Below, in pieces: positions 289-62,665 of a DNA stretch of 64,000 nt. Origin of the DNA: Nannocystis bainbridge (GTDB taxonomy: Bacteria; Myxococcota_A; Polyangia; Nannocystales; Nannocystaceae); the NCBI RefSeq assembly GCF_028368995.1, contig NZ_JAQNDL010000002.1, positions 160,001 through 224,000 of the forward strand, given 5' to 3'. A program made the position numbers and the translations under genes. Under the pieces are notes generated by a model. It was not told the origin of the DNA, searched no databases, and saw only the letters and a program-made list of their open reading frames with translations. Position 1 is the stretch's first letter; each line of letters begins with the position of its first letter.

Positions 289-1902
289 TCACTCGCCGCC
301 GAGGCAGACGCCGTCGCGGCGGGGGTCGCCGAAGCCGACCAGGCGGCCGTCCCGGGTGCGCTGGACGGTGTGCACGCCGCCGAAGAACATGTTGAGCTCG
401 GGCCAGGCGGTGGTGCGGGCGAACAGGCCGGCGAGGGCCTCGGCGGCGGCGGGCGAGAAGCCGGCCTCGAAGCTGACGTGGTCGTCCTCGACGTGGATCC
501 GCGGGGCGGCGATCGCCTCGGCCAGCGGCATGCCGAAGTCGAGCACGTTGGAGACGACCTGCAGGACGGCGGTGCGGATCCGCTTGGAGCCGCCGCTGCC
601 GCACACGAGCAGGCTGCCGTCGTCGCCGACGATCGCGGTCGGCGACATCATCGACGCCAGCCGCTGGTCGAGCGGCCAGGCGTGCGGGCCGGGCGGGTTC
701 ACGTCGTCCTCGCCGAGCATGTTGTTGAGCATCATGCCGGTGCCGGGCACGATCTCGCCGCAGCCCTCGCCGTTGCTGACGGTCACCGAAGCGGCGTTGC
801 CGGCGGCGTCGATGACGCTGATGTGGGTGGTGCCGCGGCTGCGCAGCGGGCCGGCCAGGGCGGCGGCGTGGGCCGCCAGCAGGTCGCCGCCGAGCCAGAC
901 CGCCTCGATGCCCTCGCGCGGCGGGCCGGCGGCCGCGCGGGCGCGCACGGTCTCGGCCTGGACGCGGGCCAGCAGGGCCGCGTGCTCGGCTGTCTGAAAG
1001 CCCATGGCCTTCGGGTCATGTCCCGAGAGCAAGGCGAGGGCAAAGGCGATCATCAGCCCGCCGGCGGCCGGCGGCGGGTTGGTCAGCAGGGTGGCGTCGC
1101 GGTAGCGCAGGCGCAGCGGGGCGCGGGCCTGGACGCGGTAGGCGGCGAGGTCGTCGGCGGTGAGGTGACCGCCGGCCTCGCGGTTCTGGCGGACGATCGC
1201 GGCGGCGACGTCGCCGCGGTAGAACAGGTCCTCGCCCTCGCGCGCGAGCTGCTCGAGCATGTCCCCGAGGACAGGATTGAAGAGGCGCGCGCCGGCCTTG
1301 GGCGGCGCCGGGGCGCCGCTCAGCGTGGCCGTGGGGTCGCCGAAGATCGCGCGCGCGGCCGGCTGCTCGAGGTAGATCGGCGCGACCAGCGTCATGAGGT
1401 ACGCCATGAACGGCGACACGGCGATGCCGTCGCGGGCAGCCTGCACGGCCGGGGCGGTGATGACGGGCATCGGCAGGCGCGCGAGCTCGCGGTGGACCGC
1501 GAACATGCCGGCGACGAGGCCCGGCGTGGCGGCGCAGCCGACCCCGACGTGGAACGCCTGCTGCGCGGTGCCCCAGTCGGTGACCACCTCGCGCGCGCAC
1601 GCCTCGGCCTGCGGCCGGCGCACCCGCGGGGTGTGCACGAAGGCGTCGTAGAGCCGCGGCTCCTGGCCGGCCGGGAGCGCGAGGATGAAGCCGCCGCCGC
1701 CGGGCGAGGCGAGCACCGGCTCGGCGACGCAGGCGGCCATCAGCGCCGCGAGCACGGCGTCGAACGCGTTGCCACCGGCCGCGAGCGCGTGCATCGCGGC
1801 CGCGGCGGTGACGGGGTGACCGGCAGCGACGCAGCCGCGGCGGTCGTGATGGATCTCGGGTGGCGTGTCCGGTGTGTAACGTGCGTGAGGGGTCGCGCGC
1901 AA
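289..1902 (-). CDS. ggt: Gamma-glutamyltransferase family protein
   Basis: GGNAFDA, EPVLASPGGGGF, autoproteolytic TTHISVID, NNMLGE, SMMSPT, GSGGSKRI and terminal DPRRDG motifs. Start codon uncertain. Confidence 0.92.
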   Translation of the reverse strand: MRATPHARYTPDTPPEIHHDRRGCVAAGHPVTAAAAMHALAAGGNAFDAVLAALMAACVAEPVLASPGGGGFILALPAGQEPRLYDAFVHTPRVRRPQAEACAREVVTDWGTAQQAFHVGVGCAATPGLVAGMFAVHRELARLPMPVITAPAVQAARDGIAVSPFMAYLMTLVAPIYLEQPAARAIFGDPTATLSGAPAPPKAGARLFNPVLGDMLEQLAREGEDLFYRGDVAAAIVRQNREAGGHLTADDLAAYRVQARAPLRLRYRDATLLTNPPPAAGGLMIAFALALLSGHDPKAMGFQTAEHAALLARVQAETVRARAAAGPPREGIEAVWLGGDLLAAHAAALAGPLRSRGTTHISVIDAAGNAASVTVSNGEGCGEIVPGTGMMLNNMLGEDDVNPPGPHAWPLDQRLASMMSPTAIVGDDGSLLVCGSGGSKRIRTAVLQVVSNVLDFGMPLAEAIAAPRIHVEDDHVSFEAGFSPAAAEALAGLFARTTAWPELNMFFGGVHTVQRTRDGRLVGFGDPRRDGVCLGGE

Positions 1903-1945
1903 CGGCGCTTGGCGCGTCGGGTAGGCGTCGGTATCCTCGCCGCCG

Positions 1946-2866
1946 ATGTCGACCCCGCATCCTGCTTCGCCCGAGGCCCGTGATCGTCTGGTGTTGGGAG
2001 TGGTCGGTGGCTCGGGGCTCTACGAGATCGAGGGGCTGCAGGAGGTCGAGCAGATCGCGCTCGAGACGCCGTTCGGACGACCGTCCGACTCCTACACCGT
2101 GGGGCTGCTGCCGCGGGACGGCGGGCTGCCGCCGGTGCGCGCGGTGTTCTTGCCGCGGCACGGGCGCGGGCACCTGTTGCTGCCGTCCGAGATCAACTTC
2201 CGCGCCAACGTCCACGGCTTCAAGCAGCTCGGCGTGACCCACCTGCTCAGCGTGTCGGCGGTCGGGTCGCTGCGCGAGGACATCGCCCCCGGCGACGTCG
2301 TCATCGCCGATCAGTTCATCGATCGCACGGCCGGTCGGGCCCAGACCTTCTTCGGCGGCGGGCTGGTCGCGCACGTGCAGATGGGCGACCCGGTCGACCC
2401 CGGCTTCTCGCGGCGGGTCGCCGGCGCGGCCGCGGCCGAGGGCGCGCGAGTCCACGAAGGCGGCACCTGCATCGTCATGGAGGGCCCGGCTTTCTCGACC
2501 CGCGCCGAGTCCAACCTGTACCGCTCGTGGGGCGCGCACGTGATCGGCATGACTGCGCTGCCGGAGGCCAAGCTGGCCCGCGAGGCCGAGATCGCCTACG
2601 CCGTGGTCGCGCTGGCCACCGACTACGACTGCTGGCACGAGGTCGAGGTCAGCGTCGAGGCCGTGATCGCGGTGGTCAAGGCCAACGTGGCGCTGTCGCG
2701 GCGGATCATCCGCCGCCTCGCGGCCGGGCTGCCCGAGGCCACCGCCGAGCTGCCGTACCCGCGCGCGCTGCAGTTCGCGACGATCACCGATCCGGCGCGC
2801 ATTCCGGCCGAGGCGCGCAGGCGGCTCGACCTGATCGCCGGCCACGTGCTGCCGCCGTCCGAATGA
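1946..2866 (+). CDS. mtnP: S-methyl-5'-thioadenosine phosphorylase
   Basis: GVVGGSGLY, FLPRHGRGH, NFRAN, EGPAFSTRAES, GMT, ATDYDCW motifs. Confidence 0.93.
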   Translation: MSTPHPASPEARDRLVLGVVGGSGLYEIEGLQEVEQIALETPFGRPSDSYTVGLLPRDGGLPPVRAVFLPRHGRGHLLLPSEINFRANVHGFKQLGVTHLLSVSAVGSLREDIAPGDVVIADQFIDRTAGRAQTFFGGGLVAHVQMGDPVDPGFSRRVAGAAAAEGARVHEGGTCIVMEGPAFSTRAESNLYRSWGAHVIGMTALPEAKLAREAEIAYAVVALATDYDCWHEVEVSVEAVIAVVKANVALSRRIIRRLAAGLPEATAELPYPRALQFATITDPARIPAEARRRLDLIAGHVLPPSE

Positions 2867-2868
2867 GA

Positions 2869-2938
2869 TGTCCCGTGGGACATGCGCCGATGGCCATGTC
2901 CCGCAGCGCCTGTCCCTACAGGCATGTCTGAACGAACA
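2869..2938. repeat. Array of five 14-bp units filling most of the mtnP-pfkB spacer
   Basis: Units at 2869 (TGTCC-CGTG-GGACA), 2883, 2897, 2911, 2925; starts 2 nt after the mtnP stop. Confidence 0.9.
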
Positions 2939-2955
2939 GGAACGAAGAGAGAGCC

Positions 2956-4789: not shown

Positions 4790-5023
4790 GCGCATGACTA
4801 CCACGGATGGTGGCGCCGCCGCCGGGCCGCCGGGCGTTCGGCGTGCGAGGGCTGGCGTCGAAGGTCGCGGGCGGGCCGCTCGGCGGTGCACGGGCCCGAC
4901 GAGCCCTTCGGCGCAGCACGCGGACGGGCGGGAGGCGAAGCCCGAGCGGAGCCTTGACGGACCGAGCCGCGGGTCTCCTCGGGTCCGGTGGCCTTCGATC
5001 CGCGGCCGCGCCACGCTGCTCGC

Positions 5024-8000
5024 ATGGGCGACGCAGGGACAGCGGACCCAGCCAAGTACCTCGTCACCGGGCTGCTCCGCGAGAGCTCCGGCGCCTGCAT
5101 CTACCGCGCGGTTCGAGTCGAGGACGATCGCGCGGTGGTCATCAAGACGGTCGACCCGCGGCTCTGTCCGGCGCGGGAGCTCGAGCGGCTGCGGGCGGAG
5201 TACGAGCTCGGGCGCGCGCTGGACCTCGCGGTCACTGTCAAGCCGATCGCGCTCGACACCTATCGCGGGCTGCCGGCGCTGGTGCTCGAGCACTTCGACG
5301 GGGTGTTCCTCGAGCAGCTGCTGACGACAGAGCCGCTGGCGATCGAGCGCTTCCTGACGCTGGCGATCGCCATCGCCGGCGCGGTCGAGGCGCTGCACCG
5401 GCGCGACGTGGTCCACATGGATCTCCGGCCGGACAACATCGTGGTCGATCCGGAGCGCGGCGAGGTCAAGCTCGCCAACCTGGGGAGCCCCGGTACGCTG
5501 CAGGACGCCTCGCGGCCGGCGCAGAGCCCCGGGATCCCGACCGAATCACTGGCGTACATGTCGCCCGAGCAGACCGGGCGGCTGAACCGCCCGCTCGACT
5601 GCCGCACCGACCTTTATTCGCTGGGCGTCACGTTCTATCGGATGCTGACGGGGCGCCTACCGTTCCGCGCCCGCGATCCGCTCGAGTGGGTGCACTGCCA
5701 CCTGGCGCGACGGGTGACGCCGCCGGCGTCGCTGCGGCCGGCGGTGCCGGCGGCGGTGTCGGCGATCGTGGTCAAGCTGCTGGCCAAGGTGGCGGAGGAC
5801 CGCTACCAGAGCGCGCGCGGGCTCCGTTGCGATCTCGAGCGGTGCCTGGCCGAGTGGCGGGAGCACGGGCGCGTCGAGGCGTTCCCGCTCGGCGAAGATG
5901 ACCTGTCCGAACGGCCATCCGAGCCGCAGGAGCTGGTCGGCCGCGAGCGCGAGCTGGCCGCCCTGACCGGCGCGTTCGAGGCGATGCTCGAGACCGGCGC
6001 GCCGGGGCTGGTGTGCGTGTCGGGTTATTCGGGGATCGGCAAGTCGTCGCTGGTCCACCGGCTGCGGCGGCCGATCGCGCAGGCGCGCGGCTATTTTCTC
6101 GCCGGCAAGTTCGATCAGTACCAGCGCGGCATCCCGTACGCGACGATCTCACAGGCGTTCCGCGGGCTGGTTCACGACATCCTCGCCGAGCCGGAGGCGC
6201 GGGTGGGCGAGTGGCGCGCACGACTGACGGCGGCGCTCGGGCTGAACGCGCGGCTGTGCGTCGACATCATCCCGGAGCTGGCGCTCATCGTCGGCGAGCA
6301 GCCGCCGGTGTCGGAGCTGTCGGGGACGGAGGCGCAGCTCCGGTTTCACCGCGTGTTCCGACAATTCGTCGCGGTGTTCGCGGCCCGGGAGCATCCGGTG
6401 GCGCTGTTCCTCGACGACCTGCAGTGGGTCGATCCGGCCAGCCTCGCGCTGCTCGTCGATCTGATCACGCACCCCGACGTGCACCACTTCTTGTGGATCG
6501 CGGCGTACCGCGACAACGAGGTGACGACCGGGCACCCGTTGCTGGCGGCGCTGGACGAGGTGCGAGCGGCGAAGGTGCCGGTCCGCGTCATCGAGCTCGC
6601 TCCGCTGACCGAAGAGAACGTCGTAGCGATCGTCAGCGCGACCTTCGGCGGCCGCGTGCGCGGGGCGGAGGACCTGGCGCGGCTCGTGCACGACAAGACC
6701 GGCGGCAACCCGTTCTTCGCCTTGCAGTTCCTGAGCATGCTGCACCGGGAGGGGCTGGTCGCGCTCGACCTGTCCTCGGGGACATGGTCCGGAGACCTGC
6801 CGCGGATCCGCGCCAAGACCTCGACGAGCAACGTCGCCGAGCTGGTGGTGGGCAACCTGCAGCAGCTGTCCGCGTCGGCGCAGGAGGCCCTCGAGCTCGC
6901 CGCGTGCCTCGGCGGCGTGACCGAGGTCGAGCTGCTCGCGGCGCTCGGCGGGCGGTCCGCGGAGGCGGTGCAGGGCGACCTGAAGGCGGCGGTCCGCGCG
7001 GGCCTGATGCTGCGCGACGGCGACGCCTACAAGTTCGCGCACGACCGGGTGCAGGAGGCGGCGTTCTCCCTCATGCCGGCGCACGAGCGGGCGGCGGTGC
7101 ACCTGCGGGTCGGGCGGCTGCTGCTGGATCGCCTGTCGCACGAGCAGCTGGAGGCGCGGGTGTTCGAGGTCGCCGGTCACTTCGAGCGCGGCGGGCACCT
7201 GCTCGACGGCGCGGAGGAGCGGGTTCGGGTCGCCGAGGTCCAGCTGGCGGCCGGGCGCAAGGCGAGGGCCTCGACCGCCTACGCGGCGGCCGTGCGCTAC
7301 TTCTCGGCGGGGATCGAGCTGCTCGGGCCGGAGGCGTGGGCCGAGCAGCACGCGCTGGCGTTCGCGCTGGGGTTCGGCCAGGCCGAATGTGAGTACCTGC
7401 AGGGCCGATTCGAAGCGGCGGAGGAGCGATTCGCGGCGCTGTTCGAGCGCGCCCGCACGCGCGGCGAACGGGCGGAGATCCGGCGGGTGGAGGTCGATCT
7501 TTTCACCAGCCGGCAGGAGCTGCGCACGGCGGTCGAGCGCGGGCTCGACGGCCTGCGACTGCTCGGCGTCGAGGTGGCGCCGCACCCGACGCGGGCGCAG
7601 GTGCTGGCCGAGGTGCAGGCGATCTGGGACGCCATGGGCGAGCGACGGATCGAGGACCTGATCGATCTGCCGCCGCTCACGGACCCGGACATGCGCGCGG
7701 CGCTGGCGATCCTCGCGGTGCTGTTCGCGCCGACGCTCAACACCGATCCCCATCTGCCGGCGCTCTGTTACTGCCGCATGGTCGAGATCAGCCTCCGCCA
7801 CGGCAACGGCGACGGCTCCGCGCTCGGCTACGCGTACTTCGGGATGGTGCTGGGCCCGGCGTTCGGCCGCTATCACGCGGGCTATCGCTTCGGCGAGCTC
7901 GGGTACGCGCTGGCCGAGCGCAGCGGGGTGATGGCGTACCGCGCCAAGCTTCACTTTATCTTCGGCGATTGCATCCGCTTCTGGACGCGACACCTGCGGG

Positions 8001-19317: not shown

Positions 19318-19403
19318 TGTCGAGGTAGCGGCATGTCCACGAGGACATGTCTAAAAAGAAATGTGCTTAGGAGCATGTCGATGAAGACATGTCGAATGGG
19401 ACA
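19318..19403. repeat. Array of 14-bp units in a divergent intergenic region
   Basis: Units at 19334 (TGTCC-ACGA-GGACA), 19348, 19362, 19376, 19390, preceded by a 16-bp variant. Confidence 0.9.
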
Positions 19404-23114: not shown

Positions 23115-23218
23115 TGCTTCATGGGACATGTAGAGAGGCATGTTTGATAGGACATGTCTTTAAGGGCATGTCTTTGGAGGCGTCGAATAATGTCCTTAAG
23201 GACATGTTCCGAAGGTCA
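23115..23218. repeat. Array of about seven 14-bp units in a divergent intergenic region
   Basis: Units at 23115, 23129 (12-bp variant), 23141, 23155, 23169, an 8-nt gap, then 23191 (TGTCC-TTAA-GGACA) and 23205. Confidence 0.9.
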
Positions 23219-27198: not shown

Positions 27199-27282
27199 TG
27201 TCCGAAAGGACATGTTTGATGAGGCATGTCGCTTCGAGCATGGCTCTTCGGACATGCCTGAACAGGCATGTCCGAAAGCCCA
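27199..27282. repeat. Array of six 14-bp units between convergent genes
   Basis: Units at 27199 (TGTCC-GAAA-GGACA), 27213, 27227, 27241, 27255 (TGCCT-GAAC-AGGCA), 27269. Confidence 0.93.
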
Positions 27283-35459: not shown

Positions 35460-35722
35460 GCCAGCGGCCGGCGAGGGCGCGGTGGCCGGCCGAGCGAGCG
35501 GGACGCCGAGGTGGAGCGTACCTGTCCGATGGGACAGGCCGAATCCGATGTTTGCGAGGTCGTCCGCTCGCGCGATCGTGACGCCGCGATCGTCGCCGCA
35601 GGTCTGCTCGTGGTGCGGCCGCCGGTCGAGCGAGCAGCTCGCCGGGGAGCTCTGCAGGCCCGGGCGCCCGGGTTGCGAGAGGTGCTGTCGCGGTTCTGCG
35701 GCAGCGGTCGCGTGGGGCCGCA

Positions 35723-37420: not shown

Positions 37421-38587
37421 TCAGCGGGGCCCGAGCCCGAACTGCAGCGCGAGCTCCAGCCCGAGCGACAGCTCGAGGCCGCCGACGCGGAAGCGGGGCA
37501 CGCCGACCGCGTCGGCCAGGCCGACCACCCGCGGCCCGTCGTGGTCGTCGATCCCGAAGCTGCCGCCGAGCTCGATCCGCGGGCCCACGCGCAGGCCGAG
37601 CCGCGGCGACGGCCGAGCCCGCCAGCCCGGCGACAGCCGCAGGAACCCGCCCAGCAGCGGCGGACGGGCCACCGTGTCGTCGTCGCCCGACGCCGCCAGC
37701 GGCGCTCGCTCGCCCGCGCGCGTGACCCACCACGGCTCGATCGCCAGCCCGACCAGGATCGGCAGCTCGAACCGACCGCGGCGCAGGGCGTAGCCGGCCG
37801 CGATCGCCACGCGCAGGCGGCCGAGGCCGACCCCTGCCTCGGCCTGGCCGATCGCGCGGGTCTCGAGCGCCGCGGCGAGGCCCCGCGGACTGCGGACCTC
37901 GAGGCCGAGCCCGCCGCCGCCGCCGCCCAGGGCGCCGCCGTACGCTGGCGGACCGAGGCCGAGCACCGCCGCGGCGTGCAGGCCGACGCCGAGCTCCCAG
38001 CGTGGCCGATCGGACATGTCCTTTTGGACCTGCGCTTTTGGGCCTGTCTCTTCGGCCATGTCGAGGGGCGGCGACGGCTCGGGAGGTGGCGGCTCCGGCG
38101 GGGCCGGCTCGGGTGGCACCAGCTCGGGAGCGGCTGCGGGCGGTGGGATCGCCACGTCCTCCTGGTCGGGGATCACCGCGCCTTGCTCGACGGCGAAGAT
38201 CAGGTTCGCGGCGGTGCTGGCGACCACGCGGACCTCTTGCCCGATCTCGACCGCGAAGCTGCGCTCGTACGCGCGGCCGTCGGAGGTGATCACGCGGATC
38301 GTCCCGCGGTCGTCGGCGGCGCGGGTGAGCTGGAGATAGAGGTACGGCGCCTCGGTCGGGGCCGCGCCGCCGTGGCGCTCGATCGGCAGCCGCGGCAGGC
38401 GCAGGGCCAGGGCCGCCAGCACGGCGGCCTCGTCGAACCCGCGGATGTCGGCCCGCGCGGCCCGGAACTCTTGCGGCTCGCCGGTTGTCGCGTCACCTGT
38501 CCCCGGGGACATGCCCGAAGCGACACCCGGCTCGGCCGCGGGGGCGACCAGCACCGTGACGAGCGCGCATGTCGAGGCGAGGAGCAC
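37421..38587 (-). CDS. Exported protein with Pro-rich linker and C-terminal beta-barrel-like domain
   Basis: Signal peptide, PEPAPPEPPPP linker, alternating Gly/hydrophobic strands ending LELALQF. Confidence 0.7.
   Translation of the reverse strand: MLLASTCALVTVLVAPAAEPGVASGMSPGTGDATTGEPQEFRAARADIRGFDEAAVLAALALRLPRLPIERHGGAAPTEAPYLYLQLTRAADDRGTIRVITSDGRAYERSFAVEIGQEVRVVASTAANLIFAVEQGAVIPDQEDVAIPPPAAAPELVPPEPAPPEPPPPEPSPPLDMAEETGPKAQVQKDMSDRPRWELGVGLHAAAVLGLGPPAYGGALGGGGGGLGLEVRSPRGLAAALETRAIGQAEAGVGLGRLRVAIAAGYALRRGRFELPILVGLAIEPWWVTRAGERAPLAASGDDDTVARPPLLGGFLRLSPGWRARPSPRLGLRVGPRIELGGSFGIDDHDGPRVVGLADAVGVPRFRVGGLELSLGLELALQFGLGPR
38003..38058. repeat. Intragenic array of four 14-bp units
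   Basis: Units at 38003, 38017, 38031, 38045, inside the linker DMAEETGPKAQVQKDMSD. Confidence 0.8.
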
Positions 38588-39605: not shown

Positions 39606-40699
39606 GGCGTCTCCCCGCCGGCGAGGGCGGCGTCGGCTTGCTTGCGGTGGGCGCCGGTCGGGTGGTGCTCGAGATAGTCCTGCCAGCAGGCAGCGCGGGC
39701 GTCGGCGGGGCTGCGACGGCACAGACCGGCGCGCGCGTCGTCGGCGAAGCGGCCGGCGGGGAAGCGGCCCAGGTACTCGCGCCACGCGGCGGCCTGGCCG
39801 TCGCCGCCGCGCAACTGGCGGGTCAGCGCGAACAGATCGCCGTAGGCCAGCTCGGCCCGCGCGCCGGCGCCGGGCAGGGCGAGGATCTCCCGGAACTTGC
39901 GCTCGGCGGCCGCGAGCTCGCCCTTCTGCCACAGCTGTTGCGCCTCGTCCTCGAGCGACAATCCGGGCGCGGCGTCCTCCTGCGACTTGCGCCGGCGGGG
40001 GCCGTCCTTGGCGAGGGCTTTGCGCGGGCGCGTTTCGTCCGGGACGTCGACAGTCGGTGATGTCCCTCGGGACATGTCCTCGGGGGCACTTTCACGTGTC
40101 GTTTTGGGCATGTCCTGGGGGACATTCGTGACTGTCTCTTGGGACATGTCATTCCGGTCCGCGGCCCGCTCGGCGGCGCCGTCGGTGTGGACCTCGGTGG
40201 TGCCGCCGAAGCGCGCCTCGCCGTGACGCCCGCCCGCGCCGTCGAGGGCCGCCGCGGTGCCGCGCTCGCCGGCCCGCTCGGCCACGAGATCGGGGCCGAC
40301 GACGGCGAGCAGCACGGCCGCGGCGAGGGCCGCGACGACGCCGAACACCACGCCGAGGCGGCGGCGCCCGGGGACGGGGGCCGGCGGGATGCTGGCCAGG
40401 CGCCGCTCGGCCAGCTTGCCGTCGAGCTCGGCCTTCAGCGCGGTGGTGAACGGCGCCAGCGCCCCGGCGTCGCCGCGCCCGTGGCCCGGCGCGAGCGGGA
40501 CCACGGGCGGCAGGACGCCGGCGCGCGCGACCGCGTCGGCCGGGACGGCGGCGGGGTCGAGCTCGCGGGCGCGGGCCAACATGGCCGCAAAGTCAGGTGC
40601 GGGTCGGGCCCTGGCGACCAGGCGATCGAGGTGCTCGGCGGTGTCGCGGGCGAACGGCGCGAGCGCGGGCGGGGTGCCGTCTTCGTCATGCGTCGCCAT
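39602..40699 (-). CDS. Putative anti-sigma factor: single TM plus C-terminal TPR-like domain
   Basis: Overlaps the ECF sigma stop; TM LGVVFGVVAALAAAVLLAVV; C-terminal YLGRFPAGRFADDA and YLEHHPTGAH repeats. Confidence 0.75.
   Translation of the reverse strand: MATHDEDGTPPALAPFARDTAEHLDRLVARARPAPDFAAMLARARELDPAAVPADAVARAGVLPPVVPLAPGHGRGDAGALAPFTTALKAELDGKLAERRLASIPPAPVPGRRRLGVVFGVVAALAAAVLLAVVGPDLVAERAGERGTAAALDGAGGRHGEARFGGTTEVHTDGAAERAADRNDMSQETVTNVPQDMPKTTRESAPEDMSRGTSPTVDVPDETRPRKALAKDGPRRRKSQEDAAPGLSLEDEAQQLWQKGELAAAERKFREILALPGAGARAELAYGDLFALTRQLRGGDGQAAAWREYLGRFPAGRFADDARAGLCRRSPADARAACWQDYLEHHPTGAHRKQADAALAGGETP
40061..40150. repeat. Intragenic array of 14-bp units with 36-nt super-period
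   Basis: Units at 40061, 40075, 8-nt gap, 40097, 40111, 8-nt gap, 40133; 14+14+8 = 12 codons. Confidence 0.85.
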
Positions 40700-42513: not shown

Positions 42514-42774
42514 TCAGCGGTTCTGCTGATCCTTGCGCATCGGATCGCGCTGATCCGTCTCGACGTCCTGGCCCACGCCGGTGCGGCCACGGTTCGGGTC
42601 CTGCTGCTGCTGCTGCTGGTCCCGGTCGGTGCGCGGCGTGCTGGCCGGCATGTCGGGCTGCTGGCGGCCGCCCTGCTGCGGGTTGCGCTGACGATCGTCC
42701 TGCGTCTGGCCGACACCGCGGTCGCGGCGGTTGTCGTCCTGCTGCTGCGGGTTCTTCTGATTCGGGGTCGTCAT
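42514..42774 (-). CDS. Small Gln/Asp/Arg-rich hydrophilic protein
   Basis: RBS AGGAG before ATG 42774; 86 aa MTTPNQKNPQQQDD... with internal GVGQ repeat. Confidence 0.7.
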   Translation of the reverse strand: MTTPNQKNPQQQDDNRRDRGVGQTQDDRQRNPQQGGRQQPDMPASTPRTDRDQQQQQQDPNRGRTGVGQDVETDQRDPMRKDQQNR

Positions 42775-43058
42775 GGATCGTTCTCCTGAACATGTCCCTC
42801 GGGACAGGGCGGTGATTCGCCCGTCCGGGGCTCGGCGTCGGGAGCATGGTCGGCAGCGCGAGGCGGGCAAGTGATTTGGTGACGGTCGAAGCGCGGCGCG
42901 CCGTGCGACGATGCGACTTCGACGCGGTCCGCCTGCGAAACCGTTGTACCGCGGTGGCAGGGTCCGCTCGGGTGATCGGACCGGACTCGGCCTCGTGCGG
43001 CGCCGCGGCCACGCCGTCCGCGCGGACGGCGTGGCGTGCTCGACTGCCGCGCCCGGGC

Positions 43059-51186: not shown

Positions 51187-51270
51187 TGTCCTGAAGGACA
51201 TGTCGTGGAGAGCATGGCCTTCGAGGCATGTCGCAGGGAGCATGCCCTTCGGGGCATGTCCCGACGGTCA
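51187..51270. repeat. Array of six 14-bp units between tamA-like and DUF1684 genes
   Basis: Units at 51187,51201,51215,51229,51243,51257; two TTCG loops; the last unit contains the tamA stop codon. Confidence 0.93.
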
Positions 51271-55401: not shown

Positions 55402-58400
55402 GGCGCAGCTCGAGCGAACGCTGGCGGAGAGGGTCGAAGATGATGCGCTCGTTGAAGTAAGAGCGGCGGTTGTCGCGGAACTCGAGGACGGCGGAGTCGA
55501 GCAGGCGGAAGCGGACGCGCCAGTCGTAGCTGTTGCGCAGGAGCAGGCCCGGGTAGCCGCGGGTGTAGCCGGCGCCGATCGTCATGTTGCCCCAGTCGGT
55601 GCGGAACCACGGGCGCGGGGTCTCGGCGTTGACCTCGACGCCGAGCTGACCGAGCTGGGCGCCGACCTGCGGCAGGTAGGGGGCGAGGCGCGGGACCGAC
55701 TTCTCGACGTAGCGGTTGAGGTTGATCTCGGTGAGGTTGCCGACCAGGCCGAGCGGGCGCCCGAGCAGGCCGCCGGAGCCGTAGCGGCGGACGTTGGCGT
55801 CGGCGACCTCGCGGTTGCCGCTGCCGAGGATGGCGTAGTCGACACACTCGCGCTGGGTCCGGCTGCGCGCGCGCGTGTCGCCGAGCACGGCGCAGCGGAA
55901 GGTGATGGCGTCGAGGGTGCCGCCGAGGATCAGCGACATCTGCCGCGGCTGGTTCTCGATGTAGACCGGCTCCTGCCGCTGGGCGCGGACGTCGACCTTG
56001 CTCGACGACAGGTTGTTCTCGAGCAGGACGCGGCCGAAGGTGATGTCGTAGGCGCCGTTGAGGATGGCGACGTCGAGCACGCCGGCGGTGACGTCGACGC
56101 GGCCCGACATCTCGAGGTCGGCGATCGAGCCGCCGATCGCCAGCGAGACCTGACCCTCGACGCCCTTCATGATGTTGTTGTCGACCCGGAATGGCGTGGT
56201 CGTGCGGAGCCGGAGGTCGAGGTTCATGTCGCGCAGGATCTCGGGCGGCGGAGCGGACGGCGCGGAGCTCGGATCGGCGAAGGATAGCACCTTGACGCCC
56301 TGCTGCGCGTCGCGCACCCAGCGGCCGCGCGCGACCTGCACGTCGCCGCGCAGGGTCTGGACGTCGCGCCCCTCGAGGACGATGCCCTTGCCCGAGATCG
56401 CCGCGTAGAGCTGCGGGCGACCCGAGTTGTCGAACATCTTGTACTGCACCTCCTCGAGGTCGACCCGCAGGCTGCTGCTCTCGAGGCGCGAGAAGTCGGG
56501 CGCGAGCACGACGTTGCCCCACAGCGACAGCGAGCCGCGGTCGCCGACGCGGGCCGCGAGGTGGCCCTCGGGCGCGACGAGGTCGTCGATCGCGGCCGTG
56601 CGACCGCCGACGATCACCGCGAAGCCTTCCTGCTTGCCCGGGCACGGGTCGGACTCGTTGCAGCGCTGGATCTCGATCACGCCGTTGTCGAGCTCGATCG
56701 CCTCGAGGCCGAGGCCCGCGAGCTCCATCATCAGGCCGCCGGGCGCGGGCTGCAGGCGGGCGCGCACGGTCTTGAGATCGAGGCTGTCGCCGACGCGGCC
56801 GGCGGCGTGGGCGTCGGCGATCTGCAGGCCGCCCGAGCTGGCCGCGAAGGTGTCGGGCAGGAACTCGCGCAGCAGCCGACCGTCGAGGCGGCCGCGCGCG
56901 GCGGCGGAGAAGCTGCCGCCGCACTCGCCGCCGAGCACGTAGAAAGTGCGGTGGCCGTTGAGGTCGCCGAACTGCACGGTCTGGCCGCGCACCGACAGCT
57001 CGCCCGAGGCGAGCAGGGCGTCCTGGGCCCACTGCAGCGACAGCTTGGGCACGGCGAAGGTGGTGCCGGCGGCCTTGGCGGTGACGGGCTTCTGCGGGTC
57101 GGGGACGCTGAAGCTGCCGGTGATGATCGGGTCGCTGACGTGGCCGTCGAGCTTGACGTCGAGGCCGATCTTGCCGGCGATGCCGGACACGGCGGTGCCG
57201 GCGACGAAGGGGTGGAGGCCGGCGAGGTCGAGCTCGCCGGCGACGCGGGCGCTGGCGCCGGTGGCCGGGGGCGTGCGCGCGGCGGTGGGCGGCTCGCTGC
57301 AGTCGCGCTTCTCGTCCTTCTTCGGCGCCTCGGGCGAGGCCGACAGCTCGACGTCGCCGGACACGGTGAGGGTCTTGCCGACGGCGACGCCGCCCGAGCG
57401 CAGCTCCCAGCCGTCGCGCAGGCTGAGGCGCGTGCCCTGCAGGGTGGCGACCAGGCGGTTGGCGGTGCACAGCGAGTCGGACTCGCGGCACGGGTCGCCG
57501 GGCAGGTTGCTGCCGGCGGCGACGCCCGAGCTCGGCGAGCGACCGGCGGCCCACAGGCGATCGAGCTCGACGAGGATCTTGAGGTCGCGGTCGCCCTGGT
57601 CGTCGTGCCACAGGCACGAGGTGATCAGCGGCTGTCCCGGAGGACAGGTACGGGCTGTGACCGTCAGGCCCTCGGCCTGGCCGTGCAGGCCCTCGCCGGG
57701 CTCGATGCCTGCGGCGCCGAGGAGGTTGCGCAGCGGCAGGTTGGCGAAGTGGACCGCGAGGTCGGCGGCGTACGGCGGGCCGGCCTTGCTGCCGCGCGGC
57801 TTCTCGCCGATGGCGACGATGGCGTCGACGTCCCACTCGTACGGGGCGCGGCGCCGGCGGCCGCCGTCGTCGCCGAAGCGGCCCTTGACGACGATCTCGC
57901 GCCGCGCGGCCAGGCCGTCGCCGGCGGGGCGGTCGTTGCTGTCGAGCTGCAGCTCGCCGCTGCCGAGCGGGATGCCGACGGCGTTGATGGCGGTCAGCTC
58001 GACGGTGCCGTGCACGCTCGGGCGCGTCAGCGTGCCGGTGATCTCGAGGTCGGTGCCGCGATCGATCTGGGCCCCGGCGGGCAGGTCGGTGAGGCCGGCG
58101 ATCGCGGCGAAGGTGCTGATCGGCAGGCGGCGGCCGCTGATCTTGAGGTCGAGCTGCGGGTCGCTGTCGAAGCTGACCGAGCCCTTGCCGGTCAAGGAGC
58201 CGACCGGGACGGTGAGGTCGGGCGCGGCCGAGGGGCTGGGCCGGCGGTGCTGGCGGGCCACGAACTCGTCGATGTTGACGCCGTCGCGGGTGAGGCTGAA
58301 GCGGGCCTCGGTGTCGCGCAGCTCGCCGTGGCCGACCTTGAGCTCGGGCACCGAGGCGGCGCCGCGGGCCTGGAATTTGGAGAGCGGGACCGGGCGCTTG

Positions 58401-61288
58401 GCGTCGTCGCCGACCTCGAGCCGGATGTCGGCCTTGCCGGCGACGCTGTCGCCAGCGACGCGCTCGAGCTCGACGCCGGTGAGGTCGATGGTGGCGCGCA
58501 GGGTCGGATCGCTGCTGACGCCCTTGCCGTCGAACAGGCCGACGTCGACGTCGAGCGCCCCGGCGCCGCCGAGCACGGTCGCCCGCTCGCTCTTGAGGCT
58601 GAGCACGCCGTCGCGCAGGCCGAGCGAGACGTCGCGGATGTTCTGCACCGCGAACTGACCCTGGCCGACGTCAGACAATTGCAGCGACCCGTTGCGGCCG
58701 CTCGGGCGACCGAGCGGGCCGTGGACGGTGAGGCCGGCCTGCAGCCGCTCGACGAACGGGCTCATGCCGAGGCTGGCGAAGAAGCTCTTGCCGTCGGTGA
58801 TCTTGAGCTTGATGTCGGTCGGCTTGAGGTGGGCGAACTTGGCGTCGAGGCCGCCGTCGACGCTGAGGCTGGCGCCGTCGACGGTGACGAGCAGGTCGGC
58901 GAGGTCGAGGCCCTCGACGCGGTCGAGGACGACGCCGCCGTCGATGCGGATCCGTCGCGGCAAGCCGTCATGGGTGCGCCGGCGCTCGATCTTGAGGCCG
59001 CCGATCTCGAGCACGATGCGGTCGAGCGGCGAGGCCTCCTCGGCGGGTGGAGTGCTCGCGGCGGCCGAGGCGAGGGCGTCGGCGACCGGCTCGGCGGCCT
59101 CGCCTCGCGCCTTGGGCCGGGTGGCCTTGCCCGACTTCTTGGGCGGCGGCGCAGCGGGAGCGAGGGCGTAGGTGACGTCGGCCGGGGTGGCGGCCGGGGC
59201 AGGCGCGGTGTCGTCGCTGCTGGTCGGGGCCGGGGCGCTGAGCTCGAGCGCGAACTCGCGGAGGTCGAGCTTGCCCGAAGCGGTGCCGGCGAGCATCGCC
59301 CGGGTGCCGCCGGCGGCCACGAGCTCGCCGGGGTCGATGCCTTGCAGCTCGGTCTGCGCGGTCAGCAGCATGCGCCGCTCGGGGCCGGTGCCGAGCACGA
59401 GGTGGTTGCGGGCCTCGTGCTCGCGCAGGTGGAAGCTGCCCCCGAGGACATGTCCTTCGAAGCGGGCGATGTCGAGGATCCACCGCTCCTCGCCGGCCGG
59501 GATGTACTGCGACCAGGCGACGGGCACGGGGTCGCGGCCGAGGGTGGCGTCGATGGCGGCGTCCTTGATCGCCCAGTCGACGTTCGGGTCGGTGAAGAAA
59601 TTGAGGCCGACGCCGGAGGCGGCGATGGCGATGCGGATGTCGTCGAAGGGGCCGCGGAAGGCCAGCTGCGCCGGGGCGCCGAAGGCGTCGATCATCGGGT
59701 CGGCGAGGCCGTGGACGCGGGTGATGAGGCGACCGATCGGGCCGGCGTCGGTGAACAGGGCGGTGACGTCGACGCTGCGCTTGCCGGCGGTGAAGATGTC
59801 GCGCAACCACCCGCGCAGGATGCCGTGCGAGCCGCCGATCTCGCCCTCGGCGCGGATCCGGATGTCGCCGAGCGGGCCGTCGCCGCCGGAGGCGAACTCC
59901 TCGAGCTTGAGGTTCTGGATCGGGAGTTCGTAGCCGAGCGCGGTGATCCGCGCGAAGCCGGTGGTGGCGAGCGCGCTGAGGCCGAATTGCAGCGGCTTCT
60001 TGAGCGGCGGCGGCTCCTTGGGGTGCTGACCCTCGAACAGGAGGACGGCGCCGACATCCTCGAGCGCGAGCTGGGTCTGCCAGCCGGTCTGGCCGCGGAA
60101 ATCGAGGTCGAGCGCGAGCTCGGCGAGGTCGGTGTGGTCGATGCGGATGCTCAGCGCGCGGGTGTGGACCTCCGGGTAAGGTCCAGGGCCGGGCCCGAAA
60201 GCCTCGACGAGGTCGACGATCCAGGCCTCGGTGCCGTCGCCGTAATGGGTCTTGATCTCGGACACGTTGAGCCGCATCGGCGCTTCGGTCCAGATGTCGG
60301 TGAAGTGCAAGACCCACGGGACCTCGAGCACGGCCGGCACGAGGAAGCGGTTCCACGGGATGATCTCGTGCAGGATGATCTCGGCGTCGATCGGGCCGTC
60401 GCACTCGGCGATGACGGTGTCCGGCTCCGGCATGTCCTGCTTCATGTAGCCGCGCCACAGCTTGAGGCCGGTGACGGTGGCGTGGTGCGGACGGCCCGTG
60501 ATGAGATCGAGGATGAGGTCGGGGCCCCAATGGACGCTGCCGAGCTCGAGCCGGCCGTTGACCTGCTTGTCGATGACGACGGTGAGGATCCGGCCGAGAG
60601 TGGCGTCGTTGACGAAGAAGTAGGCGACGACGTAGACGACGCTGAAGAGGCCGAGGAAGCCGAGGACGAACGAGATCGGCAGCTTGATCAGGAGGAACCG
60701 CAGCAGCGGGTTCTGGCGCCGGACCGGCTGCGGCGAGGCGGCGAAGCGGACGATCTGGGGGTGCAGCGCGCCGATCTCGTCAGGGTGCGCGAGCGCGTGG
60801 AACAGCAGGGCCTCGCGCAGCTGGCCGAAGCCGTGGTGCAGCCGCGGATCGACGTCGGGGCCGGGGACGTCGCCGTCGACGCGGCCGAGCACGTGGTCGC
60901 GGATCCGCGGCTCGACGTCGTCGTCGACGGCCTCGAGCGCCTTCTCGACGATCGGCGGCAGCTCGGCCCGGAAGGGCCGCGGGCGGGCCAGCGGGATCCG
61001 GTAGGCGAGCCGCAAGGAGCGCTCGACGGCCTCCTCTCGCACGCGTCGCCGCAGCTGCTTGCGCAAGGTACGGCGTGCGCTGCGCAGGTCGCCGGCGGCG
61101 ATCCGGCCGACGAGGCGCTGGCGCCCCAGGTCCTGGTAGGCGTCGAGCAGGAGGGCGAGGCTCGGTCCGCCAGGGAAGAGGTGACGGAAGCGTCGGGAGT
61201 TGCACAGCCGTTCGAGGCGCACCCGCCCGTCAGCGAGGAGATCGGCCTCCTGCTGCCATGCGCTGCCCGTTACCCCGGCGTTGGCCAC
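55373..61288 (-). CDS. tamB: TamB/AsmA-like translocation-assembly protein with N-terminal extension
   Basis: Single TM near aa 200, long beta-rich body (ITGTLTRPSVHGTV, LDGHVSDPIITG), DUF490-like C-terminus; upstream of an Omp85 gene. Confidence 0.82.
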   Translation of the reverse strand: MANAGVTGSAWQQEADLLADGRVRLERLCNSRRFRHLFPGGPSLALLLDAYQDLGRQRLVGRIAAGDLRSARRTLRKQLRRRVREEAVERSLRLAYRIPLARPRPFRAELPPIVEKALEAVDDDVEPRIRDHVLGRVDGDVPGPDVDPRLHHGFGQLREALLFHALAHPDEIGALHPQIVRFAASPQPVRRQNPLLRFLLIKLPISFVLGFLGLFSVVYVVAYFFVNDATLGRILTVVIDKQVNGRLELGSVHWGPDLILDLITGRPHHATVTGLKLWRGYMKQDMPEPDTVIAECDGPIDAEIILHEIIPWNRFLVPAVLEVPWVLHFTDIWTEAPMRLNVSEIKTHYGDGTEAWIVDLVEAFGPGPGPYPEVHTRALSIRIDHTDLAELALDLDFRGQTGWQTQLALEDVGAVLLFEGQHPKEPPPLKKPLQFGLSALATTGFARITALGYELPIQNLKLEEFASGGDGPLGDIRIRAEGEIGGSHGILRGWLRDIFTAGKRSVDVTALFTDAGPIGRLITRVHGLADPMIDAFGAPAQLAFRGPFDDIRIAIAASGVGLNFFTDPNVDWAIKDAAIDATLGRDPVPVAWSQYIPAGEERWILDIARFEGHVLGGSFHLREHEARNHLVLGTGPERRMLLTAQTELQGIDPGELVAAGGTRAMLAGTASGKLDLREFALELSAPAPTSSDDTAPAPAATPADVTYALAPAAPPPKKSGKATRPKARGEAAEPVADALASAAASTPPAEEASPLDRIVLEIGGLKIERRRTHDGLPRRIRIDGGVVLDRVEGLDLADLLVTVDGASLSVDGGLDAKFAHLKPTDIKLKITDGKSFFASLGMSPFVERLQAGLTVHGPLGRPSGRNGSLQLSDVGQGQFAVQNIRDVSLGLRDGVLSLKSERATVLGGAGALDVDVGLFDGKGVSSDPTLRATIDLTGVELERVAGDSVAGKADIRLEVGDDAKRPVPLSKFQARGAASVPELKVGHGELRDTEARFSLTRDGVNIDEFVARQHRRPSPSAAPDLTVPVGSLTGKGSVSFDSDPQLDLKISGRRLPISTFAAIAGLTDLPAGAQIDRGTDLEITGTLTRPSVHGTVELTAINAVGIPLGSGELQLDSNDRPAGDGLAARREIVVKGRFGDDGGRRRRAPYEWDVDAIVAIGEKPRGSKAGPPYAADLAVHFANLPLRNLLGAAGIEPGEGLHGQAEGLTVTARTCPPGQPLITSCLWHDDQGDRDLKILVELDRLWAAGRSPSSGVAAGSNLPGDPCRESDSLCTANRLVATLQGTRLSLRDGWELRSGGVAVGKTLTVSGDVELSASPEAPKKDEKRDCSEPPTAARTPPATGASARVAGELDLAGLHPFVAGTAVSGIAGKIGLDVKLDGHVSDPIITGSFSVPDPQKPVTAKAAGTTFAVPKLSLQWAQDALLASGELSVRGQTVQFGDLNGHRTFYVLGGECGGSFSAAARGRLDGRLLREFLPDTFAASSGGLQIADAHAAGRVGDSLDLKTVRARLQPAPGGLMMELAGLGLEAIELDNGVIEIQRCNESDPCPGKQEGFAVIVGGRTAAIDDLVAPEGHLAARVGDRGSLSLWGNVVLAPDFSRLESSSLRVDLEEVQYKMFDNSGRPQLYAAISGKGIVLEGRDVQTLRGDVQVARGRWVRDAQQGVKVLSFADPSSAPSAPPPEILRDMNLDLRLRTTTPFRVDNNIMKGVEGQVSLAIGGSIADLEMSGRVDVTAGVLDVAILNGAYDITFGRVLLENNLSSSKVDVRAQRQEPVYIENQPRQMSLILGGTLDAITFRCAVLGDTRARSRTQRECVDYAILGSGNREVADANVRRYGSGGLLGRPLGLVGNLTEINLNRYVEKSVPRLAPYLPQVGAQLGQLGVEVNAETPRPWFRTDWGNMTIGAGYTRGYPGLLLRNSYDWRVRFRLLDSAVLEFRDNRRSYFNERIIFDPLRQRSLELRLEYQLPSLR

Positions 61289-61291
61289 GGT

Positions 61292-61842: not shown

Positions 61843-61879
61843 AAAAAAAGAAGGGCCCGTTCGTGAGAACGGGCCCTTC
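61843..61879 (-). terminator. Rho-independent terminator of the tRNA
   Basis: 13-bp stem GAAGGGCCCGTTC/GAACGGGCCCTTC, 4-nt loop, then T7 on the - strand. Confidence 0.92.
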
Positions 61880-61884
61880 AAGAG

Positions 61885-61958
61885 TAGCGGGGACGGGATT
61901 TGAACCCATGACCTCCGGGTTATGAGCCCGGCGAGCTACCTGGCTGCTCCACCCCGCA
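61885..61958 (-). tRNA. Initiator tRNA-fMet (CAT)
   Basis: TGCGGGGTGGAGCAGCCAGGTAGCTCGCCGGGCTCATAACCCGG...TTCAAATC...CCCCGCTA; three G-C pairs in the anticodon stem, 1:72 mismatch; CCA not encoded. Confidence 0.96.
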
Positions 61959-61970
61959 GCGAGGACTTGC

Positions 61971-61999
61971 CTTGTACTTCTCTGGCGTCGGCGCGTCAA
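61971..61999 (-). promoter_or_regulatory. Sigma70 promoter of the tRNA
   Basis: TTGACG (61999-61994), 17 nt, TACAAG (61976-61971), 12 nt upstream of the tRNA. Confidence 0.65.
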
Positions 62000-62101
62000 C
62001 GAAATTGTGTTGGCCCTCGGTCGATTTGGATCTGGGCATGGGGCGAAATCGCGCAGAGAGGGTCTCGAGACAGGGGACAGGCGGGGCCTGGTGGTCCTGA
62101 A

Positions 62102-62665
62102 TCAGCGAATTGGCCCCGGATCGGGCTCGCGGGCGAGGTCGGCGAGGTCGACGCGGACGGGCGAGAGATCCCCGGTACCGTCCGCACGATCCCAGAGGGT
62201 CGCCAGGACGGCGAGCGGCTGATTGACGGCGTCGAGGCGCAAGACGCTCTCCCGCGGCGGCGGGCCCGCGGTGAAGTTGAGGGGGCAGTGGTCGACGCGC
62301 GGGGTGGGGTCGGCGACGGCGACCGGCAGGCCGTGCGAGCGGCAGATCAGCGGGCGCTCGGCGTAGACGGCGCAGGCGCCATCTACGAGGAGGGCGCAGT
62401 GGTGCTGGTGAGCCGGGTCGTCGGCTTGCTCGCGGACCCTGTTCCGAAGGACAGGTGTCCGGACGGACAGGTCGGCCAGCGCGCGACGGATGGGCTCGGC
62501 CTCGGCGGCGTAGACGCCGAAGCGGTGGTGACAGCAGCTGTCGCAGCCCGCGCGACAGGCGAAGGCCGCGGGGGTGCGCGCCTCGGCGGCGGCGAAGTGG
62601 GCGTCGACGCGGCCGCGCAGCTGGACGAGGATGGCCGCGAGGGCAGGTCGGTCCGGGTCGCTCAC
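62102..62665 (-). CDS. YkgJ-family cysteine cluster protein
   Basis: CRAGCDSCC, CALL, CAVYAERPLICRSHG, CPLNF. Confidence 0.9.
   Translation of the reverse strand: MSDPDRPALAAILVQLRGRVDAHFAAAEARTPAAFACRAGCDSCCHHRFGVYAAEAEPIRRALADLSVRTPVLRNRVREQADDPAHQHHCALLVDGACAVYAERPLICRSHGLPVAVADPTPRVDHCPLNFTAGPPPRESVLRLDAVNQPLAVLATLWDRADGTGDLSPVRVDLADLAREPDPGPIR

Follow-up and report, generated by a model that had tools for sequence, protein, structure and literature searches.

The palindrome TGTCC-N4-GGACA recurs along a stretch of 64,000 nucleotides from Nannocystis bainbridge (G000:C3:160001-224000, where G000 is the genome and C3 the contig; hereafter the window), both between genes and as single copies inside ordinary coding sequences. 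We found that this box is a real feature of the genome, that it is specific in its spacing and in its positions, that it is born through substitutions, and that it is under purifying selection inside genes. Each lone site is a member of a clade-wide family, with ~4000 copies per genome, of the form MTGNCC-N4-GGNCAK, with TGTCC-N4-GGACA as its core, and the box, read as double-stranded DNA, would be where a symmetric protein dimer docks. New boxes arise inside genes through point substitutions in near-matching sequence and are then held by purifying selection, despite the rare codons and some amino-acid changes that they bring; they are most frequent in the cheapest reading frame, densest just past stop codons, and rare in promoter regions. 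On balance, we lean towards this account of a substitution-born, selected family of boxes, recognized as a duplex by a symmetric dimer at a predicted docking site.

Abundance of the box inside genes

The N. bainbridge genome comprises 11.05 Mb in 5 contigs, with a G+C content of 71.5%, and genes were called with a crude caller based on the periodicity of G+C at third codon positions (GC3), which yielded 7785 genes spanning 82% of its sequence. The window holds 17 perfect copies of TGTCC-N4-GGACA against 0.06 expected, a number reached by none of 100 dinucleotide shuffles of the window (the maximum was 2), and 41 copies with at most one mismatch against 1.68 expected. Genome-wide, we counted 1987 perfect copies at the N4 spacing versus 0 to 16 at every alternative spacing in the range N0 to N12. 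These 1987 sites divide into 796 that lie wholly within coding sequences (40%), 1169 that are intergenic (59%), and 22 that straddle a gene end, at densities of 0.88 per 10 kb in coding sequences and 5.9 per 10 kb between genes.

A preliminary description of the window had proposed that the motif is kept or generated irrespective of coding context, and this proposal is supported by the excess over synonymous shuffles described here and by the substitution births and the conservation of the arms above background described in the next section. In 10 within-gene synonymous shuffles, coding sequences held a mean of 22.9 copies (range, 16 to 28), so that the 796 copies observed represent a 35-fold excess and the intragenic counts are far from the shuffle expectation. 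The excess extends to all three reading frames, with 61, 285, and 450 copies in frames 0, 1, and 2 against 1.65, 1.9, and 20.55 in 20 shuffles, the largest total of which was 33. Deep sites, lying >150 nt from both ends of strongly scored genes, number 561 and are spread evenly along gene length. Exactly one site is carried by 487 genes and four or more by 15, and more than half of all sites (1057/1987, 544 of them in coding sequences) are lone, with no relaxed box (defined below) within 60 nt.

The motif does force rare codons (TGT, GGA, ACA, and CCT) and amino-acid changes, glutamate to valine (E>V) among them, as the preliminary description had thought worth checking. Frame 0 demands TGT (10% of Cys codons) and GGA (2.8% of Gly), frame 1 demands ACA (2.3% of Thr), and frame 2 demands a T-ending codon such as CCT (3.7% of Pro), GCT (2.8%), or CAT (10%). 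The commonest frame, frame 2, employs GTC and GAC, and the frame bias tracks codon cost. We concluded that chance and peptide-level causes are excluded.

Within those 15 multi-site genes, the box is translated as P-V-P-x-D-(M/I/S) repeats that lie in disordered parts of the proteins. Three large open reading frames (ORFs; Table 1) have 10 to 12 perfect boxes each, all in frame 2, and the P-V-P/L-x-D-(M/I/S) repeats that these encode fall in disordered, acidic stretches rich in proline. Since all of these boxes share one frame and encode one repeat, it is the DNA motif that generates the peptide repeat. Annotators of these genomes should note that clusters of rare codons, like the P-V-P-x-D repeats, are DNA driven, not protein driven.

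Birth by substitution and conservation

Relatives of N. bainbridge were gathered by means of the YkgJ-like protein encoded in the window; they are Nannocystis pusilla, N. punicea, N. exedens, and N. radixulma and, more distantly, Plesiocystis and Enhygromyxa. All six window sites examined were born by substitution, with no indel relative to orthologues lacking the site. At the ggt site, five close sister genomes have CCT GTC CTC GGG GAC ATG, compared with CCC GAG CTC GGC GAC CTG in three divergent ones. The kinase site is perfect only in G000, where it was gained by two synonymous changes, TCG>TCC and ACG>ACA (ACA being a rare codon); five sisters have near-sites such as TGTCG..GGACG. The arms and spacer of the MBOAT site are identical in 5 close sisters, and the site is missing at the aligned position in 3 divergent orthologues, again without an indel. 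At the “barrel” site, the arms are intact or one-off in five sisters, with variation in spacer and flanks (G007 is partly aligned there), and at the “tamB” site the arms are retained in five named Nannocystis species, the corresponding sequence in a Nannocystaceae outgroup being TGC GAT CCG CGG AGC. The YkgJ-like gene has T (ACA) and PV (CCT GTC) where the outgroup has D (GAC) and PE (CCC GAG); outgroups lack both of its sites, and three species have TGGCC, which differs at the tolerated position 3. Outside coding sequence, the site at 42793 is retained in six genomes; the variation there falls on positions 3 and 8, which are tolerated, and in G010 also on position 4. The substitutions that make sites include GAG>GTC (E>V), CTG>ATG, TGC>TGT, and ACG>ACA, often at poorly conserved residues.

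Conservation was assessed by comparing G000 with 1.2 Mb of a sister species genome (G005), of which 0.90 Mb aligned and covered 90 of the 1987 sites; after 3 edge, 22 non-lone, and 25 gapped sites had been dropped, 37 lone sites in coding sequences and 3 intergenic lone sites remained. With expectations derived from codon position and base, the arms of the 37 coding sites were conserved at 360 of 370 positions (0.973), compared with 0.860 expected (p=1.9e-13). The first T was conserved at 1.00 versus 0.74 expected, even though a T preceding GTC falls at a silent position and makes a rare codon; for the last A, conservation was 0.95 versus 0.62. Conservation of the spacer (130/148, or 0.878, versus 0.871) and of the outer flanks (0.890 versus 0.902) was that of the background. 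Twenty-nine of the 37 sites are perfect in both genomes, and the genome-wide ratio of perfect to one-off sites is 1987:4258 (0.47), compared with 24:615 (0.04) at the control spacings N3, N5, and N6.

An unfiltered hint of hypermutation in the spacer (intergenic, 23/48; codon position 1 in coding sequences, 21/34) was rejected, as it disappeared in lone, gap-free, well-flanked sites; the signal had come from arrays and misregistered units.

Architecture of the box

One-mismatch variants are enriched at the N4 spacing only and are distributed unevenly across positions: hardly any fall at position 2 (G) and few at position 4 (C), position 3 accepts any base, and position 5 accepts T more than G. 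The logo of the flanks widens the palindrome to R-C-M-TGTCC-N4-GGACA-K-G-Y. An A or a C precedes the core in 747 of the 796 coding sites (94%) and in 1121 of the 1169 intergenic sites; with G or T in that position the counts at N4 fall to 13 and 0. The relaxed form TGNCC-N4-GGNCA has 4525 copies, and MTGNCC-N4-GGNCAK has 4008 (1677 in coding sequences and 2182 intergenic) versus 84 to 121 at other spacings. The two flank classes are distributed differently in G000, 677 of 1103 C-flanked copies being intragenic and 1165 of 1475 A-flanked copies being intergenic.

In coding sequences the half-sites behave independently, since compensated C-G pairs at positions 3 and 8 number 22 versus 19 expected, and flank pairs of the kinds CC..GC and CC..TC occur equally often. 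The N4 spacer sequences are highly diverse, the flanks are symmetric with no T-tract beside the boxes, and in tandem spacers there is no transcription-strand bias (G.T versus A.C mismatches, 320 versus 279; p=0.10). Taken together, the specificity of spacing and position, the independent halves, the symmetric flanks, and the lack of strand bias or of a T-tract point to a symmetric dimer acting on duplex DNA, not to a hairpin.

Phylogenetic distribution and arrays

We counted the core 14-mer in each genome, with a reversed-pattern control that gave 0 to 10 copies. Among the 11 genomes of the GTDB genus Nannocystis (g1, which includes G000), six large genomes have 1550 to 2090 core copies each, and five divergent or incomplete genomes have 114 to 959 each. 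Two sister genera, g2 and g4 (5 genomes each), have 87 to 169 and 67 to 295 copies per genome, respectively; genus g32 has 20 and 6, and genomes sampled from 37 other genera have 0 to 8 each. Among the genera sampled, enrichment of the motif is therefore confined to Nannocystis and two sister genera of the family Nannocystaceae. The CATG-flanked 18-mer is abundant solely in the large Nannocystis genomes. In the divergent genome G009, the flanks are ACCTGTCC..GGACAGGT, and in G013, of genus g4, 5 of 7 sites lie in coding sequences.

Three ideas were dropped along the way. A gradual rise of the motif along the lineage, suggested by the 18-mer, is contradicted by the core 14-mer, which already has 959 copies in G009, so that only flank preference and arrays differ. 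An apparent second, genus-specific palindrome in G013 (G013:C22:700001-1100000) proved to be a CRISPR array with a 36-nt repeat and 69- to 80-nt spacing. As for carriage by phages, 102 viral contigs match the motif, and all 80 among the matches listed have a single site, which looks like chance scatter. In the open-access literature on Nannocystis palindromes and myxobacterial repetitive extragenic palindromic elements, we found no description of the motif.

The window also has arrays of boxes (Table 1). The array just 3′ of ggt is present in all sister species, with differing unit number, spacers, and sequence. The array at 40040-40160 encodes a linker joining a transmembrane helix to a C-terminal domain, and sister species vary there by indels of 3 to 30 nt, all of which are multiples of three, showing that this array evolves as coding DNA. 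The notion that lone sites are satellites of such arrays sits poorly with the divergent clade, which lacks CATG-type arrays and nevertheless has 38 of 61 sampled sites inside genes (sampled in G009). From this comparison of sequences, the box seems to have been dispersed and largely intragenic at first, with the CATG arrays amplified later.

In the divergent clade (G009, G006, and G008), the spacer after ggt has repeated TTGCAAT- or CTGCAA-type words, not box arrays. The ggt orthologue in G010 and in G007 consists of two overlapping pieces (residues 1-293 and 281-501), which suggests a frameshift or a split gene.

Placement along the genome

Intergenic boxes are distributed unevenly with respect to transcription. 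Convergent spacers hold 12.9 of them per 10 kb, tandem spacers 5.95, and divergent spacers 2.1. Within tandem spacers of 500 to 900 nt, the density per 10 kb falls from 18.2 and 13.5 in the two deciles nearest the stop codon to ~5 in the middle and to 2.5 in the decile that adjoins the start; overall, the density behind stops is 13 to 21 per 10 kb. Lone sites show the preference for the region after stops too, as does each of the two flank types, in smaller numbers. The 15.3 kb that follow 102 tRNA genes contain only 2 sites (Poisson p=0.006 relative to the intergenic mean), and given this scarcity and the missing T-tract we rejected a general role as a terminator.

Along the contigs, gap statistics give a near-random distribution, with a coefficient of variation (CV) of 1.19 and near-exponential quantiles. 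Deserts of 70 to 130 kb with one or no perfect box have a lower G+C content (0.68 to 0.71; Table 1) and may be recently acquired islands. The possibility that intragenic sites fill gaps between intergenic ones was rejected, since the nearest noncoding site is at a median distance of 4052 nt, compared with 4302 nt from random positions, a difference that runs against gap filling (p=0.05).

By analogy with known systems, the depletion in promoters, the tolerance within gene bodies, and the peak after stops would fit a roadblock or boundary role or a nucleoid-associated one, although this is speculative. Stoperators of Cluster A mycobacteriophages offer one such comparison: as described in the cited part of the work of Mavrich and Hatfull (2019, PMC6550527), they are operator copies outside promoters, in and between genes, at which bound repressor blocks elongation. 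The Nannocystis boxes likewise lie outside promoters, within and between genes. However, a phage has 20 to 30 stoperators, which are asymmetric and aligned with the direction of transcription, whereas the boxes are symmetric, number in the thousands, and lie on a bacterial chromosome, and their roadblock role is only proposed.

The preliminary description had likened the motif to uptake sequences, to Chi or KOPS, and to nucleoid-occlusion sites. A protein-binding palindrome of the nucleoid-occlusion kind is the closest of these in mechanism, but the box has thousands of copies. Chi and KOPS are asymmetric words whose strand orientation is tied to replication, and that analogy is unsuitable because the motif and its flanks are palindromic.

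A candidate reader

The ideal site of CviR, a LuxR-type receptor, is CTGNCCNNNNGGNCAG (Stauff and Bassler, as cited in a passage of PMC12114271). The Nannocystis box matches it in the specified bases, in the free position 3, and in the constrained positions, and the two share the same 16-bp dyad architecture; the CviR-type pattern CTGNCC-N4-GGNCAG has 1103 copies in G000 versus 38 to 57 at other spacings. They differ in that CviR boxes are few and lie in the promoters of quorum-regulated genes, whereas the Nannocystis boxes number in the thousands, lie mostly outside promoters, accept A as well as C in the flank, and have no correlated LuxR protein that binds acyl-homoserine lactones (AHLs). 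An AHL-type LuxR protein was accordingly rejected as the reader: Autoind_bind (PF03472) is present in 4 of 61 genomes and is not correlated with the motif; its only matches in g1 are two marginal ones (23.7 and 24.9 bits), and g2 and g4 have no match. By analogy with the CviR box, the reader may still be a dimer with a helix-turn-helix (HTH) of the LuxR/GerE type, a suggestion that we make tentatively.

G000 has nine genes for GerE-domain proteins at E<=1e-5, eight of which do not appear to fit the phyletic pattern of the motif. Two NarL-type regulators (L291 and L292) have orthologues in all five motif-poor genera compared, an FHA-GerE protein (L294) is widespread, a protein with two GerE domains (L298) is patchy, and a GerE+TPR protein (L293) is missing from G001, G005, G011, and G013. 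Of the remaining NarL-type regulators, L295 is found only in g1, L297 is missing from G009, and L296 is ambiguous, with 41 to 48% matches in 3 of 5 motif-poor genera in a comparison that lay outside the motif genera. The gene for L293 is itself located within a motif desert.

The ninth protein, L300 (179 aa, PAS-like+GerE), is present in 9 of 10 genomes of g1, 5 of 5 of g2, and 7 of 7 of g4, and in none of 159 other genera (401 genomes of the class searched). It is 97% identical in close species, and its HTH and recognition helix, FSTVRTYVRQIYRR, are invariant across 25 homologues that are 45 to 97% identical overall. Its 149 database homologues, described as LuxR C-terminal related where named, belong to Nannocystis, Nannocystaceae, and Myxococcales. 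An AlphaFold model (pLDDT 75) has a small alpha/beta domain and a four-helix HTH, and the folds nearest to the model are those of the sensor+HTH regulators EL222, VqmA, TraR, NarL, and CviR. On its distribution and sequence, L300 would be the best candidate for the reader, being confined to the three motif genera, but we regard this identification as a lead that may well prove wrong.

More speculatively, the reader could act as a sequence-specific nucleoid-associated factor or a stoperator-like roadblock, not as a promoter regulator. That a LuxR-family one-component sensor (PAS-like+GerE HTH) has become a nucleoid-associated protein or a global roadblock at >4000 boxes, its frozen specificity shaping codons and amino acids in hundreds of genes of the three genera, is an idea about which we are doubtful. 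If it were true, such a LuxR-family global binder would be a bacterial-chromosome counterpart of the phage stoperators and possibly a signal-responsive switch of genome-wide transcription or compaction.

Several observations weigh against the proposed reading or its candidate reader. The peak after stops is real, and the intergenic arms covary modestly (compensated C-G pairs, 120 versus 71 expected) and show longer stems; a role as a hairpin or at the RNA level would account for these as well. Boxes are scarce in divergent spacers and within ~60 nt of starts, although LuxR-type boxes normally lie in promoters. No box lies within 2.8 kb of the L300 gene, so that the usual sign of autoregulation is missing, and G006, an 84%-complete metagenome-assembled genome of g1, has 450 copies of the motif and no match to L300. 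The phyletic match of L300 is a single evolutionary event in three related genera, perhaps one clade, and many clade-specific genes would share the same pattern; moreover, the GerE lead arose from likeness to one published box. Finally, the conservation result rests on one species pair and 37 sites, and the GC3 gene calls are crude and of incomplete coverage.

Alternative explanations and known systems

The alternative that survives best, though we consider it unlikely, is a molecular drive of the uptake kind, in which the box would be a preferred substrate of DNA uptake or recombination, accumulating where tolerated because alleles with the box would be transferred more often, with no benefit per site. 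Known uptake sequences are asymmetric, non-palindromic single words recognized during uptake, and to our knowledge sequence-specific competence is not known in Nannocystis, although we made no literature search on it. The box, by contrast, is a strict palindrome with a fixed N4 spacing, its half-sites occurring nearly all as strict N4 inverted pairs, and its sites are unevenly spread (gap CV, 1.19). On the other hand, the box resembles the uptake sequences USS and DUS of Pasteurellaceae and Neisseriaceae in several ways. According to the cited part of the study of Findlay and Redfield (2009, PMC2817400), these number in the hundreds to thousands, ORFs contain between a third and two thirds of them, their frame bias is set by codon preference, and they sit at poorly conserved residues and accumulate by point mutation. 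The box, too, is present thousands of times, inside genes and between them, with a frame bias by codon cost and a point-mutation origin often at weakly conserved residues; it is common to a group of related genera, and the low-G+C deserts have few or no sites. Conservation of the arms is equally compatible with selection and with drive.

We think it quite unlikely that the boxes are hairpins like those of repetitive extragenic palindromic (REP) elements, that is, stem-loops of single-stranded DNA or RNA at gene ends, serving as 3′ stabilizers or terminators and spread by a transposase-like enzyme, with the intragenic copies as strays. REP elements and bacterial interspersed mosaic elements (BIMEs) are short, extragenic palindromes, specific to a species or genus, found in variable arrays 3′ of genes and associated with transposases of the RAYT class. 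The box arrays are also clustered, variable, and just 3′ of genes, and they turn over fast between species; the drop in density from stop to start and the covariation and longer stems of the intergenic arms point the same way. However, intragenic copies make up 40% of the total, with 561 lying well inside strongly scored genes, and the six sites examined were born by substitution, not inserted. The Y1 transposase domain PF01797 was found in 0 of 11 genomes of the genus (E<=0.001; completeness, 64 to 91%), compared with 6 of 14 named genomes in the control. Arms in coding sequences do not covary, the central stem position is free, the spacers are diverse, the mismatches have no sense-strand G.U bias (p=0.10), tRNA genes are rarely followed by a box, and the window has no Rfam family besides one tRNA.

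The hyper-abundant word HIP1 of cyanobacteria provides the model for another explanation, in which the box would be the target of an orphan DNA methyltransferase or of methylation-dependent repair, with an epigenetic or repair role. The effects of repair bias on word frequency are small, compared with an excess of >100-fold for the box, and its 5-N4-5 symmetry, together with the degeneracy of its inner and flank positions, is more characteristic of HTH dimers; no methyltransferase was linked to the box, although no methyltransferase search was made. We consider this explanation very unlikely. HIP1 (GCGATCGC) is 15- to 300-fold over-represented, within and between ORFs, and conserved beyond background (Xu, Lawrence and Durand 2018, PMC5861425); in the cited part of that study, selection is inferred over neutral replenishment, no RNA or peptide role was found, and a nucleoid-associated role is argued. 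A link to orphan methyltransferases is described in a passage of PMC4390886. The box is also hyper-abundant (at least 15-fold), within and between ORFs, and conserved beyond background. It differs in being a 5-N4-5 dyad of 16 to 18 bp with degenerate positions, a peak after stops, and tandem arrays, whereas HIP1 is an uninterrupted 8-mer with a periodic distribution and orphan methyltransferases; in its gap statistics the box does not appear regularly spaced (CV, 1.19), and it comes with a candidate HTH reader and is found in three Nannocystaceae genera only.

The last alternative, that the word encodes a favored peptide such as the P-V-P-x-D-M/S repeats or is an artifact of a 72% G+C content, draws on the prevalence of frame 2 and on the PVPxD(M/I/S) repeats of the 15 box-rich genes and is refuted by peptide-preserving shuffles that give 23 copies, not 796, by enrichment in all three frames and on both strands, by the 59% of copies that are noncoding, by the conservation of the silent T before GTC, and by the 0 to 16 copies at other spacings.

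Hyper-abundant words such as HIP1, uptake sequences, REP elements, and Chi are few, and several are unexplained decades after their discovery. The box is as strong as HIP1, with its >100-fold excess, selection at silent sites, and amino-acid changes, and it has handles that HIP1 lacked, namely, the box architecture of a known family, a clear onset in three genera, and one candidate reader with an invariant recognition helix. With these, the purpose of writing an operator thousands-fold into genes becomes testable in culturable myxobacteria.

Sites in the window and other features

The preliminary description had placed exact lone copies at 1260, 6771, 38498, 43581, 57633, 62456, 35523, and 42793, and all eight are where it put them; its near-perfect neighbor at 62440 is a one-mismatch copy. 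Four of the host genes have Pfam support, namely, ggt (G_glu_transpept), the giant kinase gene (Pkinase+AAA_16+GAF+HisKA/HATPase), MBOAT, and the gene for the YkgJ-like CxxCxxCC protein. The “tamB” and “barrel” ORFs had no match in a Pfam search at 1e-3; both are long ORFs with GC3 support.

Table 1. Boxes, arrays, deserts, and genes discussed in the text (window positions unless a contig of G000 is given)
Feature	Position	Context	Remarks
Lone perfect site in ggt	1260..1273	CDS (coding sequence) 289-1794, minus	Frame 2: CCT GTC CTC GGG GAC ATG (P V L G D M)
Lone perfect site in 1911-aa Ser/Thr-kinase/His-kinase gene	6771..6784	Gene 4988-10723, plus	Frame 1
Lone perfect site in “barrel” ORF	38498..38511	ORF 37421-38587, minus	Near 5′ end of ORF; no Pfam match
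Lone perfect site in MBOAT_2 gene	43581..43594	Gene 43059-43916, minus	Frame 1: ATG TCC TTG TGG ACA
Lone perfect site in 1971-aa “tamB” ORF	57633..57646	ORF 55373-61288, minus	Frame 0: TGT CCT CCG GGA CAG; rare TGT, GGA
Perfect site in YkgJ-like CxxCxxCC gene	62456-62469	Gene 62102-62665, minus	One-mismatch neighbor at 62440-62453
Lone intergenic site	35523..35536	Convergent spacer, 64 nt past aldo/keto reductase stop	C-type flanks ACCTGTCC..GGACAGGC
Lone intergenic site	42793..42806	19 nt upstream of start of 86-aa ORF (42514-42774, minus)	Adjoins GGAGA ribosome-binding site
Intergenic site	2869..2882	3 nt past stop of phosphorylase-family gene 1991-2866
Intergenic site	19334..19347	258 nt upstream of BlaI/Penicillinase_R-type repressor gene	One-mismatch partner at 19390
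Intergenic site	23191..23204	Divergent spacer between genes	N4 spacer is TTAA
Intergenic site	27199..27212	Convergent spacer, 39 nt past hydrolase gene stop
Intergenic site	51187..51200	Between two minus-strand genes, 68 nt past Omp85-family gene stop
CATG-type array	1..290	Just 3′ of ggt stop	Perfect copies at 231, 259, and several one-mismatch copies
Array of three to four boxes	40040..40160	Inside ORF 39602-41020, minus	Translated as DMS/DMP-rich disordered linker
Large ORF with 10 to 12 boxes	C3:712626-717846
Large ORF with 10 to 12 boxes	C2:1216679-1218890
Large ORF with 10 to 12 boxes	C5:658300-661411
Motif desert	C1:1138240-1268209
Motif desert	C1:1807160-1885541
Motif desert	C2:1831094-1907030
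Motif desert	C5:420759-493832
L300 gene	C3:1036254-1036793, minus		179-aa PAS-like+GerE protein
Kinase paralogue	C5:708201-709202
Kinase paralogue	C5:718704-719705

The lone site at 42793 lies just upstream of a ribosome-binding site, as had been noticed, and is a possible case of true operator use; the 86-aa ORF behind it has no Pfam family. Elsewhere in the genome, two kinase paralogues on contig C5 have identical scores to one query and lie on opposite strands ~10 kb apart, which suggests an inverted duplication near the contig end.

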